From contig JANPLN010000065.1 of the NCBI GenBank assembly GCA_031426555.1, positions 8,535 to 72,534 of the forward strand: a stretch of DNA of 64,000 bases. Direction: 5' to 3'. The stretch comes from Bdellovibrionales bacterium. GTDB taxonomy: Bacteria; Bdellovibrionota; Bdellovibrionia; Bdellovibrionales; JAGQZY01. Shown here piece by piece: positions 5,359 through 13,399 of the stretch. The position numbers and the translations under genes were made by a program. The notes beneath the pieces were generated by a model. That model made no database searches and was not told the DNA's origin. It was given only the letters and a program-made list of their open reading frames with translations. The first letter of the stretch is position 1. Every line of letters begins with the position of its first letter.

Positions 5359-6177
5359 TTAAATTTTCGTCACGTCGCCAAGCTTACTAATATAAAAGCG
5401 CTTGGCGATGGGGCTGTCGTCGTAGGCCACAAAAAAATCGCCATCGGGAGAGCGCACAAGGCCGATGGGCTCGATGAGGCGCTCGCGACCGGGGGAGCCA
5501 CCGTTTTTGTAGGTCATGCGCACTCGGGTGCGTTGGTACATGGCATCGATCAAAAGTCCTAAACTCTTCGATTTAAATTTTAATTCATCCATGGAGTAGT
5601 CTTTCCAATAAAGCTCTCCATCTTGCATTTGAAAAATATCTTCCAATGATTTGAGCTGCGCGCGTTCAATACAGTGGAGCGCCACTTGCAGGCAAGCGAT
5701 GGCGTCGTCCAAGGCGCGATGGGCTGCACCCTGAGTAATGCCCAAGTGGGGGATGAGAGTTTGTAGCTTGTGATTTTTGGAATCCTTAATCACATTGCGC
5801 GAAAGGCGGCTGCTGCAGATCACAGGTTTTGAAGGCAGCTCAAGGCCCAGGGCTTCAAAGCCCACAGAGATAAAACCCATATCAAAAGACGCGTGGTGAG
5901 CAATCAGTGTCCCATCTTGAATAAATTTGTGGAACCCAGGGAGAACATCCTTCAGTGCCGGTGCATCTTGCACCATTTCGTTGGTGATTCCATGGATTTT
6001 AATCACTTCCTCACCCATTGGTCGAATGGGCTTGATGAGTGACTGAAAGGTATCGATGATTTCGCCGTTAAGATATTTAGCAGCGGCGATTTCGCAAATC
6101 TCGGATTCGATGGGGTATTTGCCTGTGGTCTCTGTGTCAAAGCCGATAAAAGTAGAATTTAAACTGGTCGTGATCAT
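5359..6177 (-). CDS. DEDDh 3'-5' exonuclease (DnaQ/epsilon-like) fused to a C-terminal WYL-like domain
   Basis: FDTETTG, AHHASFD and HRALDD motifs; C-terminal 'VRMTY...RERLIEPIGL...FFVAYD...KRFYISKL' resembles WYL. Confidence 0.85.
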   Translation of the reverse strand: MITTSLNSTFIGFDTETTGKYPIESEICEIAAAKYLNGEIIDTFQSLIKPIRPMGEEVIKIHGITNEMVQDAPALKDVLPGFHKFIQDGTLIAHHASFDMGFISVGFEALGLELPSKPVICSSRLSRNVIKDSKNHKLQTLIPHLGITQGAAHRALDDAIACLQVALHCIERAQLKSLEDIFQMQDGELYWKDYSMDELKFKSKSLGLLIDAMYQRTRVRMTYKNGGSPGRERLIEPIGLVRSPDGDFFVAYDDSPIAKRFYISKLGDVTKI

Positions 6178-6191
6178 GGGGATCTTGTATC

Positions 6192-7925
6192 ATGGAGCAC
6201 ATGACGAAAGCACTTGTAATTTTTCTGTTAGTTATTGTTGGCAATGCAGCGCAGGCCCTGGATATTTCGCCTGCAAACGACAAGCAACCGGTGCAGGTAA
6301 AATCCGCGCGAGTGTCCCCGCTCGAGGTAAAGCCGGGCAGTCGAATCAGCGTTTCCATTGATGTGGATATCACGCAAGGTTTTTCGGTTTATGAAGACAA
6401 ACTCAAATTGTTCCCGCTGGAGCCCGATGGAATGACTTTGGGTGGTTTGCAAATGACACCGGTGGTGGAGTTTGTGGATTTTTCAGGAAAACAGCATCGC
6501 GGATTACTGAAAACCGCCCGCCTCGATTTTTTTGCCGAAATTCCCAAGGATGCAGACGCCCCTTTAAAAACCTTCGCCATGGATTTGGAATACATTGCGT
6601 GCACCACCAAGTACTGTTCACCGCCCACCAAGCTCGAAGTAAAGCTTCCGATAAATATCCAGTCGCGAGATCTGGTGCCCAATTCCTCCATGATCGAACA
6701 GCAGATTTCTAAAAATTTATTTTGGGCGTTCGTCCTCGTTTTTGTTTTCGGGTTTTTAACGTCTCTCACGCCGTGCGTGTATCCGCTGATTCCCATCACT
6801 CTCGCGGTGATTGGAGCTCGCGCTTCACAACTCTCTAGGGCACAGGCATTTGGTTTAAGTTTTGTCTATGTGCTTGGGATCTCGGCCACTTATTCTTTAC
6901 TTGGTGTTGTAGCGGCAAAAACGGGGGCTTTGTTCGGACAGGCGTTGAGTTATCAGCCTGTCGTTATGGCCTTTGTGATTCTTTTTGTATTAATGGCCTT
7001 AAGCATTTACGGGTATTTCGAAATTGGAATTCCACATTTTATTAGCAAGCGTCTCGAAAAATCAGGGGACAATCGCGGCTACATGGGCGCCTTCTCGTCG
7101 GGGCTCATCGCCGGAATCGTCGCCAGTCCCTGCGTGGGCCCGGTGCTGGTGGGAGTGCTTGCGTACATCGCAAAAACGCAAAACATCGTACTTGGATTCT
7201 GGTTGTTATTTACCTTCGCCATGGGCATGGGTGTTTTATTTTTATTTATTGGAACTTTTAGCTCGTCGTTTAAAAAACTACCGCGCTCGGGGCCCTGGAT
7301 GGACGTGGTCAAATTTGTGCTTGGCACAACCATGTTGGGTGTGGCGCTGTATTATTTAAAACCGCTGCTGCCCGATGCATGGTTTACCATCTGCTTAGCA
7401 TTGATGATTGCCGCAGCTCTCTTTATTTTTATCGCCAAGGTTTACCCAAAGGTGGATCATAAATTTTGGCACTACATGCCGTTTATCTTTTGCGCGCTGA
7501 TTGTTATTAGCCCCTTAGTCATAAAAATTCCAACGTCGTCACGCAGTACAGAGCAAACGCAAAAAGCGGCCCTTAAAAACGGTTGGACCTACTATTCCGA
7601 AGACGCCTTAAGCAAAGCCAAAGAGCAGGGAAAGCCCGTCATTATCGATTTTTTTGCCGACTGGTGCGCAGCCTGCCTCGAGCTCGATGAAAAAACTTTC
7701 GCGAAGCCTGAATTTATCGAAGCGACAAAAAATTACACGTTGCTAAAAGTGGACGCTAGCGAAAACTTTCCAGAGCTTGCAGATTTACAAAAGAAGTACG
7801 AAGTCTATGGCTTGCCAACGATTGTATTTATCGACAAAACCGGCAACGTGGTCAAAGAGCTTACGCTCACCGGCTTCGAAGAGATCGAGCCCATGATGGC
7901 TCGATTGAAGACATTGAATCCTTAA
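6192..7925 (+). CDS. dsbD: thiol:disulfide interchange protein DsbD
   Basis: N-terminal CTTKYC, TM domain with LTPCVYP and ASPCVGP, C-terminal thioredoxin WCAAC. Confidence 0.93.
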   Translation: MEHMTKALVIFLLVIVGNAAQALDISPANDKQPVQVKSARVSPLEVKPGSRISVSIDVDITQGFSVYEDKLKLFPLEPDGMTLGGLQMTPVVEFVDFSGKQHRGLLKTARLDFFAEIPKDADAPLKTFAMDLEYIACTTKYCSPPTKLEVKLPINIQSRDLVPNSSMIEQQISKNLFWAFVLVFVFGFLTSLTPCVYPLIPITLAVIGARASQLSRAQAFGLSFVYVLGISATYSLLGVVAAKTGALFGQALSYQPVVMAFVILFVLMALSIYGYFEIGIPHFISKRLEKSGDNRGYMGAFSSGLIAGIVASPCVGPVLVGVLAYIAKTQNIVLGFWLLFTFAMGMGVLFLFIGTFSSSFKKLPRSGPWMDVVKFVLGTTMLGVALYYLKPLLPDAWFTICLALMIAAALFIFIAKVYPKVDHKFWHYMPFIFCALIVISPLVIKIPTSSRSTEQTQKAALKNGWTYYSEDALSKAKEQGKPVIIDFFADWCAACLELDEKTFAKPEFIEATKNYTLLKVDASENFPELADLQKKYEVYGLPTIVFIDKTGNVVKELTLTGFEEIEPMMARLKTLNP

Positions 7926-10900
7926 AACAAGTCTACGCAGCGCAATCCGGTTTGCGCAGGTGCGGCCGGCCGAGTTACTTGAAGTGTCATCCCCGTTCGC
8001 GATCGTTCCACCACGGACTTGAGTTCCGAGGAAATAAGGCTGTCCACGAGTACGTCCCAGGGGCCCATGCTTTTTGGATCTCTCTTTGAAGGTTCACCTC
8101 TCCGTTGAAAGAACAATCGCATTATGATTCTTCTTAAAATCACGGATTCGAAAACAGCTCGATCTAAAATGATGGCTCGTTCCTTGGTTTTAACACTCAA
8201 CGTTGAGTTGATATGATCAATTTTTGTTACCCCTCCAATCAAAGTTTCGATTTTCTTGGCGGAGGCGATGTCATCTGCGTGGCCAGAGATTGGTTTTACA
8301 AGATGCGCGTAGAGAGTTCGGTAAAGTTTCGCAGACTCGATGCTTTGATTGAGCTGCATTTGATACAGAATTTCCATGACCTCGGGGGAAGGATAAAATA
8401 GACGTTCTAAATTCAATTGCTGAAGTTCTTGTTGATATCTCTGCCCAAATTGCTGGGACCAAAGCACTATTTCTTTCGATCTCACATCGCCAAGGCCGTC
8501 AACATCTTCGAGATGTCCTCCGTATTTGGCTAAAAAATAAAATGGGAGGGCGGTAAAAATTCGCGTGCCAAAAACCATTCCATTTGCATTATCGAGACTG
8601 ATTCTGCTGAGGTCCATGGGAAGTTCGTCGTGACTCAACGGTTTCAGTAACCAGTCTTTCATGGTCAGTGCCCACGGCGCAGCAGCTTTATTTACATAAT
8701 TTAGCTTCTCTGCAAGTACGGAAACTATATCAAGTGTTTTCTCTCTTTGCGCAATGCTGAGGGTTTCTAATTGGGGATTGTAGACAATGCGGCGGTAGTA
8801 TTCCAGCCACCAAACAGCATTTACAGTTTTAGGTAGCGTCACATTGTGGGATTTGTCTACTAGATAGTCTTCGCCGTGGTCTTGCATAGCCCGATAGCGG
8901 AAGTCCATGAGATCATCTCCGGTCATCGTGTATTTGGAGAGCTTGAGTTGGGCTTGAAGAGCTTGCCGGTGAGATTCATCGATATGATCGATCATTCGTT
9001 GGGCAAAGGGCGCTTGGTCTAGAAGATCTTGAAGAAGAAGCGGCGGCAGTGGTTGTAGAGTGGTGGCTATTTTAGAAAACCAGTTTAATTTCTCATCTGG
9101 AAGAACAACACCAAAGGCTTTCACGGCTTCGACAGCCAATGCTTGCTTCATCATGTAGAGCTCGATGTTGCTGACCTGTGAGCCAATGTAAGCATCGACT
9201 TGGTAGGCTCTGTGAAGAGTAAAGATGCCATCTTGAGGAGTCAGGCGGTGGGGAGAAGCATTACCGCCCAGTGTGATGTCTGCGTCCAAAAGGGGTTGAG
9301 CAAACTGAGCAATAAATTGCTTTTGTCCTGGATTTTGCAACGACAGCTGACGAGCCAAAGCGGCCAATCTAAACAACGGAATTTTTCCATTGCGTGCATG
9401 GATCCCATCGAAGGGAAGTCCCACGGAAAGACTTTGCATACGAAGTTTAGCAACATCCGATGAAAGGCGTGTGAGTTTTAGTAAATCCTCTGTTCCTTCA
9501 AAGGATTCCGCCCACCTGTAATCATAGTGCCAAGGATTTGTGATCCCCAACCTTTGAAAATTGGTAACCACTTTGTGTCTGTAAGTTGGGAGCGCATAGG
9601 GTGTGCGTGTACTAGTCTCTGTTTGTAGAATCATTTTTAAAAGAGACGGAGCGTTTGGAGCTGCTAAGACAAGACGTCGCCCTTCGCTGGAGTTCAAAAG
9701 AGAAAGTATATTCACAATGGCCACAATTTGCTTTTTTTCAAAATCGGTTAAAGACTTTATGGTGTCGGCCCAGCTTTCCGGAAAGAGTTCTGTTTTCCCT
9801 TGAACAAAGGCCTCATAGACTCTGTGGATACCGCTTTCAGGGCCTAAACGAACACTAGGGTCATTCATCATGGCTTCGTAAGTTCGCTGCATGGGGTGTT
9901 CTAGCCCGTCATAAAAAAGGCGTTCGATTTGAACATCCTGCAGGAAATATTGCCAAGGTAAGCTGAGCATTTTCCAGTTGGTAAAAATAAATTCGGAAAG
10001 CTGTCTTGAAATCTTGGGCCCAGCACTTTTTTCAGTATTCATCGACCATCTTCCATCAAGATGCAGATCTGCTCTTTCTAGGATGGTCTGCACCCAATCA
10101 TTGATTTGGGTTGAGGTGGGTGGATCAACTTTTACACTCCAACCAAACTGAATTGCAATTTTAGAGGATTGGCTGAGAATATCGCGCTCTGCATTTTTTA
10201 ACTTTTGCAGTTCTGAATCATTGATAAGGTCCTTGTCTGATTGAGCTCTTTCCATAATTTCGAGCATTGGACTGTCAACTTGCAAGCTGACTAAAGAGTC
10301 GATGCTGACCTTTTGGTCATCGAGGGTGATGCCAGACCCCTTTTTTTCTGTGTATTTGCGAAAGGGCTCATTGCTTTTAGGATCAAATTGGAAAACGGGA
10401 AACAGCGTGCTTAAAAGATGGCCAGGAATTTCCTGAAAAAAACGTATAAAAGAACCACCGAAATCTGTGAGACGAATTCCGGTTTTTAGCTGACTCAAAC
10501 GCGTTCCTCGACCGAATGCTTGCAAAAGAACTTTAATATTAGAGGATGTGTTCACGTAGACGATTCGATTTGCTGACGGTAAGTCCACTCCTTCTCCAAG
10601 CAGGTCCACACTGATTAGATATCGATGTCTGTGGGAGCTTTGCGTACTATTAAACCAATCTATATTCTGAGCGACCACGTCCACTGAATTACTTTGTTTT
10701 TGTCCTGAGTGAACGACACGAAACTCCATGTTTTCGCTTTTTGCCATTTCGTTGAGGAATATTTTGTAAATTTCGGCGTGCACGATCGAGGGTACAAAAA
10801 TGATACCGCGGTCGTACTCAGCCACACGGTCGTTGCGGTCGCGCTGAAATTGCGCTCGCAGGTCGTTGAAAACTTTTTCGATAATCGCTGTGTGCACAAA

Positions 10901-12310
10901 ACGGATTTCTTCTCGCAGTGTTTTTAAAATTTCTTCAGGAATCTCGTCCACGTCGGCTCGGATAAAGGCGTCCTGGTGAGCGCCTAGTTTTTCACTGAGG
11001 GCTTGCTGCTCGCGCAGCAATTTTTTCCTAAAACTTAAACCCTCAAAATTATCGTTCATGCCAGTGATAAAAGTGAGTTCTTGAAGTGGTGACAGCCAGC
11101 CTTCAGTGATGGCACGAACCAGTTGGATGCGAGCAATGCGGTCCGCCTCAACACCCTCGATCAGGTTTTTGTATTCTTCCACCGAAATAAAAGCCGTCGC
11201 AACACGTCCGTCATAATTTGCAATAAGGTCAGGCTGAGTCTCATGCCAAGGTGTGGCAGACATATCAACCACCACCGTGTTAGCAGAAAGGCGAGACATC
11301 ATCTGTTCATGAACGACCGCAAACTGTCCCCCCACTTTCCCGGCATGGTGGGCTTCGTCGCGGTAAATGACTTTAGGGCCGCTGTATCTTTCGAGAAGGG
11401 TGAGTATCTCTTGGCTTCGTTTAAAAAATGTAGAGCGGGTGGCAAGGATAAATCGTGTGTTGCTGCCAATCGCAGAGGTGGTGCCAGTATCAAATAAGCG
11501 CGCCGTTTCTATACCAGGAAAGATTTCCTGTAGTTTTTCTGCTACGTCCGAGAGGATCAATTTGTTCTCAACCACAAAAACCATCATGGGCATTTGCTGC
11601 TGATGAATCGCTTTGACCATCTCAAGAAATTTTAATGCCACAATCGTTTTGCCAACGCCGGTTGGGAGCATGAGGAGCATGTGCAGCGGATGTGCGATCC
11701 CTTGCTTTAAGTGATCTTGGTACATTGTGACCAGTCCTGGGCGAGAATAGTCCCCCTCCTTCTTTCCCGTCAAAGTTTCTAGTTGTGGAGGAGTAAGTTT
11801 TTTATTTTTTTGAGCGGGGAGAAGAGGGTTTTTAAACAAAGGATGCAGAGTCTGATCAGCGCGAAAGAGAGATCTTGTGAATCCCTTGAGATCTTCGACG
11901 TTCAGCAATTCCTTTTGTGAATTGTACATCGCAACGAGATTGCCCTCAATGGCTGGCCCTAAATATTCTCCCTTGTTGGATTGAAAACGGTGAACACGCA
12001 CATCTGGTGGACCTGCGATGTAGGATTCGCCTTCGACAAAGTGGATATTATATGTCGAATAGATGTTCCATTCGCTGCGCCTTTTTTTGGGTTCGGGAAT
12101 CAGAACTTCCAGTGTGATGACAGCTCCCTGTTCGGTTTGAGACGTCTTCATACGAAAGGGGTGCTGCTGGGGGTCGGCTTCGATCCGCGGAAGTAGAGGG
12201 GAGAGAACCTCCTTCACATACTGGGCGACATAAGATTCAGGGGTCTGAGCAAAGGCGACAGGGCTTGAGCTTAGAAGCATCAGAGACAGGAAAAATTGTA
12301 TTAAACGCAT
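7922..12310 (-). CDS. large superfamily-2 (ResIII/DEAH-like) helicase with N-terminal signal peptide and long unknown C-terminal region
   Basis: Walker A LPTGVGKT, DEAHH, SATP, GIIFV, LGEGVDLP, QAFGRGTR; from ATG 12310 MRLIQFFLSLMLLSSSPVAFA|Q. Confidence 0.85.
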   Translation of the reverse strand: MRLIQFFLSLMLLSSSPVAFAQTPESYVAQYVKEVLSPLLPRIEADPQQHPFRMKTSQTEQGAVITLEVLIPEPKKRRSEWNIYSTYNIHFVEGESYIAGPPDVRVHRFQSNKGEYLGPAIEGNLVAMYNSQKELLNVEDLKGFTRSLFRADQTLHPLFKNPLLPAQKNKKLTPPQLETLTGKKEGDYSRPGLVTMYQDHLKQGIAHPLHMLLMLPTGVGKTIVALKFLEMVKAIHQQQMPMMVFVVENKLILSDVAEKLQEIFPGIETARLFDTGTTSAIGSNTRFILATRSTFFKRSQEILTLLERYSGPKVIYRDEAHHAGKVGGQFAVVHEQMMSRLSANTVVVDMSATPWHETQPDLIANYDGRVATAFISVEEYKNLIEGVEADRIARIQLVRAITEGWLSPLQELTFITGMNDNFEGLSFRKKLLREQQALSEKLGAHQDAFIRADVDEIPEEILKTLREEIRFVHTAIIEKVFNDLRAQFQRDRNDRVAEYDRGIIFVPSIVHAEIYKIFLNEMAKSENMEFRVVHSGQKQSNSVDVVAQNIDWFNSTQSSHRHRYLISVDLLGEGVDLPSANRIVYVNTSSNIKVLLQAFGRGTRLSQLKTGIRLTDFGGSFIRFFQEIPGHLLSTLFPVFQFDPKSNEPFRKYTEKKGSGITLDDQKVSIDSLVSLQVDSPMLEIMERAQSDKDLINDSELQKLKNAERDILSQSSKIAIQFGWSVKVDPPTSTQINDWVQTILERADLHLDGRWSMNTEKSAGPKISRQLSEFIFTNWKMLSLPWQYFLQDVQIERLFYDGLEHPMQRTYEAMMNDPSVRLGPESGIHRVYEAFVQGKTELFPESWADTIKSLTDFEKKQIVAIVNILSLLNSSEGRRLVLAAPNAPSLLKMILQTETSTRTPYALPTYRHKVVTNFQRLGITNPWHYDYRWAESFEGTEDLLKLTRLSSDVAKLRMQSLSVGLPFDGIHARNGKIPLFRLAALARQLSLQNPGQKQFIAQFAQPLLDADITLGGNASPHRLTPQDGIFTLHRAYQVDAYIGSQVSNIELYMMKQALAVEAVKAFGVVLPDEKLNWFSKIATTLQPLPPLLLQDLLDQAPFAQRMIDHIDESHRQALQAQLKLSKYTMTGDDLMDFRYRAMQDHGEDYLVDKSHNVTLPKTVNAVWWLEYYRRIVYNPQLETLSIAQREKTLDIVSVLAEKLNYVNKAAAPWALTMKDWLLKPLSHDELPMDLSRISLDNANGMVFGTRIFTALPFYFLAKYGGHLEDVDGLGDVRSKEIVLWSQQFGQRYQQELQQLNLERLFYPSPEVMEILYQMQLNQSIESAKLYRTLYAHLVKPISGHADDIASAKKIETLIGGVTKIDHINSTLSVKTKERAIILDRAVFESVILRRIIMRLFFQRRGEPSKRDPKSMGPWDVLVDSLISSELKSVVERSRTGMTLQVTRPAAPAQTGLRCVDLF

Positions 12311-12424
12311 GCGGGCAATATAGGTCACTTCCCAGTGACCTGATATGACGTTGTCTTCGCGTTGTAAAAGTTTTAGATGTGATTAACTTTTATCCACTCT
12401 TTAGCTGACAGTTTTGCTGGCAGT

Positions 12425-13399
12425 TTAGCTGACCTGAGCGGCTGGGTGGTGGGCGGGGATGCCTGTATTGGCCACGCCTTGCGGTAGGATGGGAACGATT
12501 TCAGTTTCCATTTTTTCCGTCACGATAAGATTTTCCAGCATCATTTGTGACAAAGCTTCTAGGTGGTTAAATTCATCGCTTTTACGAAGTTTTAATTTTT
12601 GCGGTTTGCCAGCCACGAAGTTTTTTACAAAACGTTCGAAGGCGTAAACCGGTCCAGCCACACGGTGGGAAAGGGAGCGGCCAATCATAAACAAGAAAGC
12701 ACCAAACGCCAAGGTGAAAGCTGTGTAAGTCTGAATGAAGGGAATTAAAAATTGATCGAGCAGCTTTTGGTTATTACCAATCAAGTCCACCACCATAAAG
12801 CGCAAAAAGGTATAACTAAACACGCCGGCGATGAGACCAAATCCCAAACCAATACCCATCAACGTAAAGCAGTAACGCAATTGAAACGCGGGATTTACCC
12901 AGTAGTATTTACGAATATTATTTTGTGGCCACAGCAATTCGCCATCTTTTAAAAGCGCCGTCACTAAACAAATATAACCCACCCACTGGAGAGCATCTGC
13001 AACGTTGAGCACCGGGGAGTGCCAGCCACCCACTTCGAAATAAATAAAATCGATCACATAACCTTGAATCGTGCGATCGATCACATTGCCGATAATTCCA
13101 CCCATGAGGGTCGACATTCCAACGCGCAACAAAAGGGATTTGATCGGAAGAAGATACTGAATGATCACAAACGTAAATAGTAAAAATGCTCCACCCGTAG
13201 AAAGAGAAACAATTCTTAAAATCGGAGGAAGACTAGAAAACAACCCAAGCATAGCGCCTTTATTGAAATGCAGTGCAAATCCAAGGGGGCCATATTTAAG
13301 AGTGCCAGCAAGTCCCAGGGCCCACCATTTGGTTGCTTGATCAATTGCGATCGTAAAGAACATCGGGGCGAGGACATAAAACCATTCGTGCTTTTTCAT
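12425..13399 (-). CDS. lspA: lipoprotein signal peptidase II with C-terminal 2-TM + HAMP-like extension
   Basis: DQATK, NKGAMLG, GNVIDR, VIDFI, NVAD motifs; extra ~170 aa ending SHRVAGPV...LRKSDEF. Confidence 0.85.
   Translation of the reverse strand: MKKHEWFYVLAPMFFTIAIDQATKWWALGLAGTLKYGPLGFALHFNKGAMLGLFSSLPPILRIVSLSTGGAFLLFTFVIIQYLLPIKSLLLRVGMSTLMGGIIGNVIDRTIQGYVIDFIYFEVGGWHSPVLNVADALQWVGYICLVTALLKDGELLWPQNNIRKYYWVNPAFQLRYCFTLMGIGLGFGLIAGVFSYTFLRFMVVDLIGNNQKLLDQFLIPFIQTYTAFTLAFGAFLFMIGRSLSHRVAGPVYAFERFVKNFVAGKPQKLKLRKSDEFNHLEALSQMMLENLIVTEKMETEIVPILPQGVANTGIPAHHPAAQVS

Follow-up and report, generated by a model that had tools for sequence, protein, structure and literature searches.

The closest described relatives of the gene reported here are motors of helicase superfamily 2 (SF2): the type IV restriction enzyme SauUSI, which joins a PLD nuclease, an SF2 motor and a DUF3427 domain, and HsdR of the EcoAI family of type I systems, type III Res and RadD (YejH), all with the domains ResIII and Helicase_C. 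We analysed a 64,000-nucleotide stretch of a Bdellovibrionales genome (contig JANPLN010000065.1, assembly GCA_031426555.1; hereafter the window), in which one gene encodes a protein of this kind, P0001, with a predicted Sec signal peptide at its N-terminus and a short cysteine tag, C-x-x-[LIV]-F, at its C-terminus. The tag recurs on other signal-bearing proteins of the same genome (G000), and we propose that it may be a sorting signal of enzymes exported by a predator.

Two-step sorting signals are known in the C-terminal domain of type IX secretion system (T9SS) substrates, in PEP-CTERM/MYXO-CTERM and in XVIPCD; in the T9SS and CTERM cases export by Sec comes first. The A subunits of AB toxins are tethered by a disulfide and released on its reduction. 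Like these signals, the cysteine tag is a terminal address common to unrelated cargo. Unlike the T9SS and CTERM signals it is five residues long, has neither a transmembrane helix nor a folded domain, occurs at either end of the protein and is represented by no NCBIfam model.

In Bdellovibrio bacteriovorus, signal-bearing enzymes are released into the prey, as seen with Bd0934, Bd3507, Bd1244, Bd1934 and the secretome of empty bdelloplasts (PMC7925074, PMC3593177, PMC11003981). The exported nucleases characterised there are of the endonuclease I or staphylococcal-nuclease type; the parts of these papers that were examined describe neither a sorting tag nor an exported SF2 helicase. Bd1501 comes closest to the latter: it carries the annotation ATP-dependent exoDNase and appears in a list of nucleases with a predicted signal (PMC7925074, PMC3593177). 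Nor was a description of the tag or of an exported SF2 helicase found in the literature searched, which covers few subscription papers. Within that literature the class of proteins defined by the tag is undescribed.

Results

A predicted exported SF2 motor

The N-terminal and motor features of the gene are as follows.

7922..12310, minus strand: gene for the predicted exported SF2 helicase-like ATPase (P0001, 1462 amino acids from the ATG), from the open reading frame (ORF) call and Pfam
12248..12310, minus strand: predicted Sec/signal peptidase I (SPase I) signal peptide, residues 1-21, cleaved between AFA and Q, from sequence and family conservation
11801..12247, minus strand: family-specific N-terminal domain, residues 22-170, from alignments; no known family
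10436..11800, minus strand: SF2 motor core, residues 171-625, from Pfam and profile alignment to P0016
11780-11797, minus strand: Q motif
11645-11668, minus strand: Walker A
11348-11359, minus strand: DEAH motif
11252-11260, minus strand: SAT motif
10577-10594, minus strand: motif V
10499-10522, minus strand: motif VI

A preliminary description of this DNA, made from its letters, had given the ORF coordinates, the signal and the motifs, all of which held; the strand and the terminal cysteine tag were absent from it. P0001 has two RecA-like domains with motifs Q, I, II, III, V and VI, as expected of a ResIII-like SF2 helicase or translocase. LPTGVGKT, DEAHH, SAT, EGVDLP and QAFGRGTR are all present, and Pfam matches to ResIII (3e-13), Helicase_C (2e-11) and DEAD (5e-8), each above its cut-off, lie within residues 207-605, bearing out the earlier reading of a ResIII-like protein with every core motif intact. 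Against the 93% identical orthologue of the closest named relative, a Bdellovibrionales metagenome-assembled genome (MAG; L020), dN/dS is 0.11 overall, 0.028 in the motor (residues 171-640), 0.08 in the N-terminal domain and 0.22 in the C-terminal region. GK[ST], DExx and QxxGRxxR are kept in 20/20 members of the helicase family defined below. Judged from its sequence, P0001 is an SF2 motor of the SauUSI/HsdR/RadD type, with intact motifs and under strong purifying selection. The gene has the GC content of the window, and an in-frame GTG upstream, at 12328, is a possible alternative start that would add six residues and retain the signal.

The best solved match to the motor is a SauUSI-type enzyme, PDB 7CLG (E 6.7e-6 with the single sequence, 4e-20 with a profile), whose entry is titled 'putative helicase'. 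The whole core also aligns with the SauUSI-like protein P0016 (PLD-helicase-DUF3427; profile probability 99.4, E 9.7e-22). Unlike the SauUSI type, P0001 is without PLD, DUF3427 (by Pfam) and HxKxxxxD, and it has a signal peptide, a cysteine tag and a separate clade. ResIII and Helicase_C are shared with HsdR, Res and RadD, to which weak NCBIfam and PADLOC matches were obtained, but the scores are far below the equivalog cut-offs, Mod, HsdM and HsdS are not adjacent and no nuclease domain was identified in Pfam, NCBIfam and PADLOC scans. As the preliminary description had stated, no cognate methyltransferase or specificity gene stands beside the helicase in the window, its flanks being an lspA-like gene and dsbD; nor was one recognised among the ORFs of ten relatives' loci (14 proteins scanned). 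We read the motor as a new branch, predicted to be exported, within a known family of ATPases; it does not appear to belong to a restriction system.

The N-terminus, MRLIQFFLSLMLLSSSPVAFA followed by Q, was read as a Sec signal on inspection and with a heuristic, having n-, h- and c-regions and an AxA site for SPase I that are conserved in homologues. No lipobox is present, the sole Cys of P0001 being residue 1458, far from the cleavage site. The family examined has 20 members: P0001, L020, nine from a protein search and nine more distant ones from genomes. The protein search gave 14 matches among 7998 scored candidates, comprising the nine members (33-90% local identity) and five cytoplasmic SauUSI-like proteins. 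All members of known source belong to Bdellovibrionota, and in a tree of 19 of them, which omits P0003, all fall into a single clade (support 100/100) apart from four cytoplasmic SauUSI-like proteins. A hydrophobic N-terminal stretch, defined as ten residues with a mean Kyte-Doolittle value of at least 2.1, was found in 20/20 members and in 0/6 cytoplasmic SauUSI-like controls (control maximum 1.27). Between P0001 and L020 the signal region has two synonymous and no nonsynonymous changes, and the next Met after it (M54) is not conserved and is lost in L020. The signal proposed in the preliminary description is therefore well supported at this level: its loss in homologues, named there as contrary evidence, did not occur, and a true start downstream of the hydrophobic segment is unlikely given the lack of conservation of M54. 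The N-terminal domain (residues 22-170) ends in a nearly invariant R-S-x-x-R-A-D motif; it had no match in PHROG and no usable one in the ESM Atlas.

A terminal cysteine tag on the helicase family and across the genome

7925..7939, minus strand: terminal cysteine tag CVDLF (C-x-x-[LIV]-F), holding the only Cys of P0001

All 20 helicases have a Cys near one terminus: in 12 it is at the C-terminal end and in eight it follows the signal, three of these eight being a poor or lipobox-like fit. In the clade with C-terminal tags (P0001-P0010, 1421-2051 amino acids) it is the only Cys outside the signal in 10/10 proteins and the only invariant column of their alignment after residue 1387. Eight of the nine distant members have it behind the signal, while L034 has a C-terminal Cys. 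The tag changes end within this family, as it does within a kinase family described below. No terminal transmembrane helix was called, and 0/12 C-terminal 40-mers matched a curated NCBIfam model (E up to 10).

In G000 we called 2785 ORFs, and a heuristic picked out 767 proteins that bear a signal and have no transmembrane helix. Among these 767, C-x-x-[LIVF]-F was observed 24 times in the first mature residues just behind the cleavage site, where 1.1 were expected, and 14 times at the C-terminus, against an expectation of 0.3. Patterns with S/A/G/T/N/D for Cys, with Leu for Phe or in reversed order were not enriched, and a W variant was observed 3 and 1 times against 1.0 and 0.3 expected. In proteins without a signal the tag occurred 9 times in the N-terminal position (10.1 expected) and 4 times at the C-terminus (1.7 expected), close to or at the expected level. 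These counts are descriptive, since the pattern was derived in G000; homologue families in other genomes are the independent test.

Curation left 35 tag carriers in G000, 22 N-tagged and 13 C-tagged. The body of 29 of the 35 has no other Cys, and body Cys frequency is 0.20% in tagged against 0.91% in untagged signal proteins. The lipobox fits 0/22 N-tags. The tag is also found with residues after the Phe and occurs at either end. When 36 candidates were compared with one another by BLAST, the only links were that between the two amidoligases and a single match over 30 residues of signal plus tag, so the tagged cargoes are otherwise unrelated. By sequence pattern, P0001 is one member of a tagged class and not a lone oddity. 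Visual inspection of 36 upstream regions revealed no common promoter motif.

Six of the 18 first-pass C-terminal candidates were dropped, namely four uncertain cases, a signal-less histidine kinase and a mosaic adhesive trimer (MAT) fibre. This fibre (L002, G000:C45:35367-43109) is 2580 amino acids long and has an Lcl domain at its end. A rule by which neighbouring genes pair an N-tagged with a C-tagged protein was rejected, as adjacent pairs occur as C+N, N+N and C+C.

The tagged cargo and its homologues in other genomes

Five of the 13 C-tagged proteins of G000 are ATP-using: the helicase, a ClpA/B-like double AAA+ protein, two amidoligases, one of them with an ATP-grasp domain, and a PI3/4-kinase-like protein (below the Pfam cut-off, NCBIfam 5e-7). 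The other eight are a GH2 glycosidase, a 5'-nucleotidase, an FAD oxidase, a nucleoside hydrolase, a trypsin-like and a thioredoxin-like protein and two without a family. The thioredoxin-like protein (L014, G000:C62:370-1038) is predicted to be exported and could take part in the redox chemistry of the tag. Only 6 of the 22 N-tagged proteins have matches, several below cut-off (transglutaminase-like, DUF559, EEP nuclease/phosphatase, S9 peptidase, ParB-like and glutamine-amidase-like), and 16 are without a family. The effector idea of the preliminary description is strengthened by the presence of the same tag on other ATP-dependent enzymes with export signals.

Amidoligase homologues were found in 13/301 genomes, and 14 of the 16 matches outside G000 have a C-terminal Cys tag, in lineage-specific flavours; of the remaining two, one is without a Cys tag and one sequence is cut off. 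Kinase homologues were found in 32/301 genomes. The 24 kinase loci read include seven with a C-terminal tag, eight with a Cys behind the signal (two exact matches), five with a longer Cys-rich form, one without a tag and three cut off. The three Clp-like homologues comprise one with the exact tag, one with a bare terminal Cys and one cut off.

Blind slices of further genomes gave one strict tag in 400 kb of G072 and two in 397 kb of G084. A carrier in G072 is a polymerase-beta nucleotidyltransferase. A looser form of the tag was found 10 times in 198 kb of G147 (1.8 expected), and the tagged proteins of that genome include an AAA+/M41 protein, an M3 peptidase and a beta-amylase. The first of these (L183:5028-8399) is a signal-bearing, C-tagged protein of 1123 amino acids with two Walker A motifs and an M41-like metallopeptidase match, and resembles a soluble FtsH-like enzyme. 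When the DNA of G072 was searched for the tag as a pattern, 1400 matches were obtained and the control gave 1200, a difference that is noise. Of the 14 loci from a RecD-like search for a counterpart of Bd1501, four were read, and none of these has a signal. From these sequences, the tag is widespread in the phylum but uneven.

The C-terminal half of P0001

7991..10435, minus strand: variable C-terminal region, residues 626-1440, from AlphaFold, Foldseek and VIA
7940..7990, minus strand: low-confidence, probably flexible Pro/Ala-rich linker before the tag, from a predicted local distance difference test (pLDDT) score below 50 at model residues 733-762

The preliminary description had called about 800 C-terminal residues unrecognisable, and indeed no Pfam, NCBIfam, PADLOC or PHROG family matched them and the ESM Atlas gave no usable match. 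An AlphaFold model of residues 701-1462 (mean pLDDT 57) is all-helical from 701 to 1440, with the tag following the low-confidence linker. With this model, Foldseek found no match at E<=0.001, and the best VIA hit (Z 7.3 over 67 residues of a helical bundle) is uninformative; these results do not show a new fold. A check for a nuclease or translocation fold, as the preliminary description had suggested, thus gave no nuclease domain and, with this low-confidence model, no fold match; nor was a PD-(D/E)xK family matched in the scans, the all-helical character of this half being seen at low model confidence. No RNA holder was listed. Shorter stand-alone forms of the helicase were absent among 8000 candidates, a search of little power that also missed known members of that length. 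In P0008 and P0009 (2040-2050 amino acids) the C-terminal helical region seems to be duplicated, with LxLPW occurring twice and, for P0008, a second BLAST segment.

Locus, neighbours and host

6192..7925, plus strand: dsbD, conserved flank of a variable insertion slot, from Pfam DsbD_TM
12425..13399, minus strand: lspA-like gene, the other conserved flank of the slot, from Pfam Peptidase_A8

The slot between the lspA-like gene and dsbD is empty in one relative (G274), holds other genes in two (G370, G253) and has an extra signal-bearing protein in L020. Because large signal-bearing orphans lie there in relatives (L020:14587-17493; L041:2242-4221), the slot appears to be a hotspot for accessory exported genes. 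A functional link of the helicase to dsbD or lspA was rejected, as both flank the slot whether the helicase is present or not. A helicase homologue was found in 10/401 genomes of the phylum (G000 included) and in 0/9 others of the family of G000; by this distribution the gene is accessory. No adjacent immunity gene was found in the window. The lspA-like protein (324 amino acids) has its SPase II domain at residues 14-150; five relatives share with it an additional extension that is part membrane, part cytoplasmic. At 5359-6177 of the window, a DEDDh exonuclease with a C-terminal WYL domain is conserved beside dsbD in the family.

In 8/9 distant loci (L031-L033, L035-L039; e.g. L036:2095-3258) the helicase adjoins a conserved signal-bearing protein of 340-430 amino acids with a C-terminal Cys tag and no Pfam family, followed in five by a small TetR-like gene (one confirmed by Pfam). 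This tagged neighbour was not found in G000. In G147 a 702-amino-acid protein directly after the helicase (L037:6741-8849) matches sigma-70 region 4 and further helix-turn-helix families, with an ambiguous start and a possible signal and Cys; it was dropped as an exported sigma factor, being a singleton in 301 genomes with a Met just before its Cys.

A predator is plausible as host, since the closest named relative is a Bdellovibrionales MAG, and we regard a predatory lifestyle as likely. G000 has four secretins, confirmed by family model, which from gene order and pilin-like leaders we read as one type II secretion system, one type IVa pilus and two Tad clusters. No tail sheath was found in G000. 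Two phage-sheath-like matches lie in one contig of another genome (G084:C13:380323-382476).

Discussion

We propose that the tag is an undescribed sorting signal and that P0001 is one of a class of Sec-exported predator enzymes delivered into the prey cytoplasm, a proposal that we place slightly on the favourable side of even. P0001 would first be exported by Sec into the oxidising periplasm. The short tag helix would then bind a carrier or a secretion component, the probable bond being a reversible disulfide; the machines on hand for this step are type II secretion, type IVa pili and Tad pili. A covalent role for the Cys is suggested by the loss of competing cysteines, which is best explained by a thiol that has to react correctly in an oxidising compartment. 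Release would follow in the reducing prey cytoplasm, since the site of release needs both ATP and DNA and, for a predator, this points to the prey cytoplasm. Prey ATP would drive translocation along DNA, most likely stripping proteins from the prey nucleoid or stalling replication or transcription on it, a role suggested by the lack of a recognisable nuclease in P0001. This action would precede that of the separately secreted nucleases of the predator, and the helical C-terminal region would select the target. In line with such delivery, predator proteins with secretion signals have been detected in prey killed without invasion (PMC11003981).

Several observations weigh against delivery into the prey cytoplasm. 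No reader of the tag was identified, and the tagged genes are scattered and not beside any machine. We know of no route by which a folded Sec substrate of 160 kDa could cross the prey inner membrane. The tag pattern was drawn from G000 itself, with heuristic signal calls, and the strict form is rare in some slices of other genomes, with three in 800 kb of G126 (0.4 expected) and none in a 200 kb slice of G206. Most helicases of the N-tag clade contain several further cysteines, with totals of 2-9 per protein and a single one in L035. Dependence on ATP is not general, as 8 of the 13 C-tagged cargoes of G000 are not ATP-using or unassigned and 16 of the 22 N-tagged ones are without a family. Five amidoligase homologues combine the tag with a lipoprotein-like signal, which suggests membrane anchoring. 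Finally, the proton-motive force of the prey is lost early (PMC12228718) and its transcription ceases 20-25 min after invasion (PMC13689555), so the window of ATP supply would be short.

The main rival is that the tag serves to tether or package exported enzymes at the surface of the predator, at its junction with the prey or in vesicles, and that they would work on breached prey with leaked ATP and no translocation; we consider this unlikely, if by no means negligible. It is favoured by the lipoprotein-plus-tag cases, by the frequency of digestive hydrolases among the cargoes and by the early energy loss of the prey (PMC12228718, PMC13689555), and Sec signals alone put a reporter into the medium (10.1101/2025.05.17.654431). 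Against it, the lipobox fits none of the N-tags of G000, and a steady supply of ATP is needed by processive motors and by unfoldases. A model for the epibiotic B. exovorus has the inner membrane of the prey disrupted at the junction (PMC12428579), but in B. bacteriovorus the prey cytoplasmic membrane is described as intact (PMC13689555).

The helicase might instead work in the predator's own periplasm, for example on incoming prey or phage DNA, with the tag as a retention or folding signal. The motor is derived from restriction-type translocases and the gene is an accessory one in a variable slot, as defence genes often are. The periplasm is without ATP, yet the ATPase motifs are under the strongest selection, and kinases, ligases and Clp-like ATPases bear the same tag; we hold this explanation to be improbable. 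Rather more doubtful still is that the tag is a processing or degradation signal for a periplasmic protease, limiting self-toxicity and with no role in targeting. A Bdellovibrio tail-specific protease does recognise a hydrophobic C-terminal flagellin motif (10.64898/2026.06.08.730854), but that motif has no Cys, the tag is equally N-terminal and found with residues after its Phe, and its strict Cys and the loss of other cysteines would be left unexplained. That P0001 is a cytoplasmic orphan restriction-like helicase with an incidental or untranslated hydrophobic N-terminus is very improbable: its named motor relatives are all cytoplasmic and no strong ribosome-binding site precedes the ATG, but the hydrophobic N-terminus persists throughout the family down to ~24% identity, M54 varies and the tag is confined to signal-bearing proteins.

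Returning to the tag as a sorting signal for delivery into prey, a broader version would see a hitherto unrecognised Bdellovibrionota pathway in which dozens of Sec-exported enzymes of cytoplasmic type, with the tag at either end, are attached to a carrier by a disulfide and released in the prey cytoplasm, a possibility that falls somewhat short of even. Equally tentative is its list of enzymes, which would include helicases, Clp- and FtsH-like ATPases, kinases, ligases, nucleotidyltransferases and peptidases.

The questions of how Bdellovibrio kills its prey and by what route its enzymes enter the prey cytoplasm are still open (PMC11003981, PMC12428579). A predicted exported SF2 motor under strong selection is unexpected in itself. 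Being linear, the tag gives a genome-wide list of candidates and a test by one residue (Cys to Ser) in a genetically tractable predator. If the proposal is true, the tag would list the arsenal of each predator and bear on how prey are killed before or without invasion, and if the tag suffices for delivery it would represent a new route for folded proteins into Gram-negative cells.

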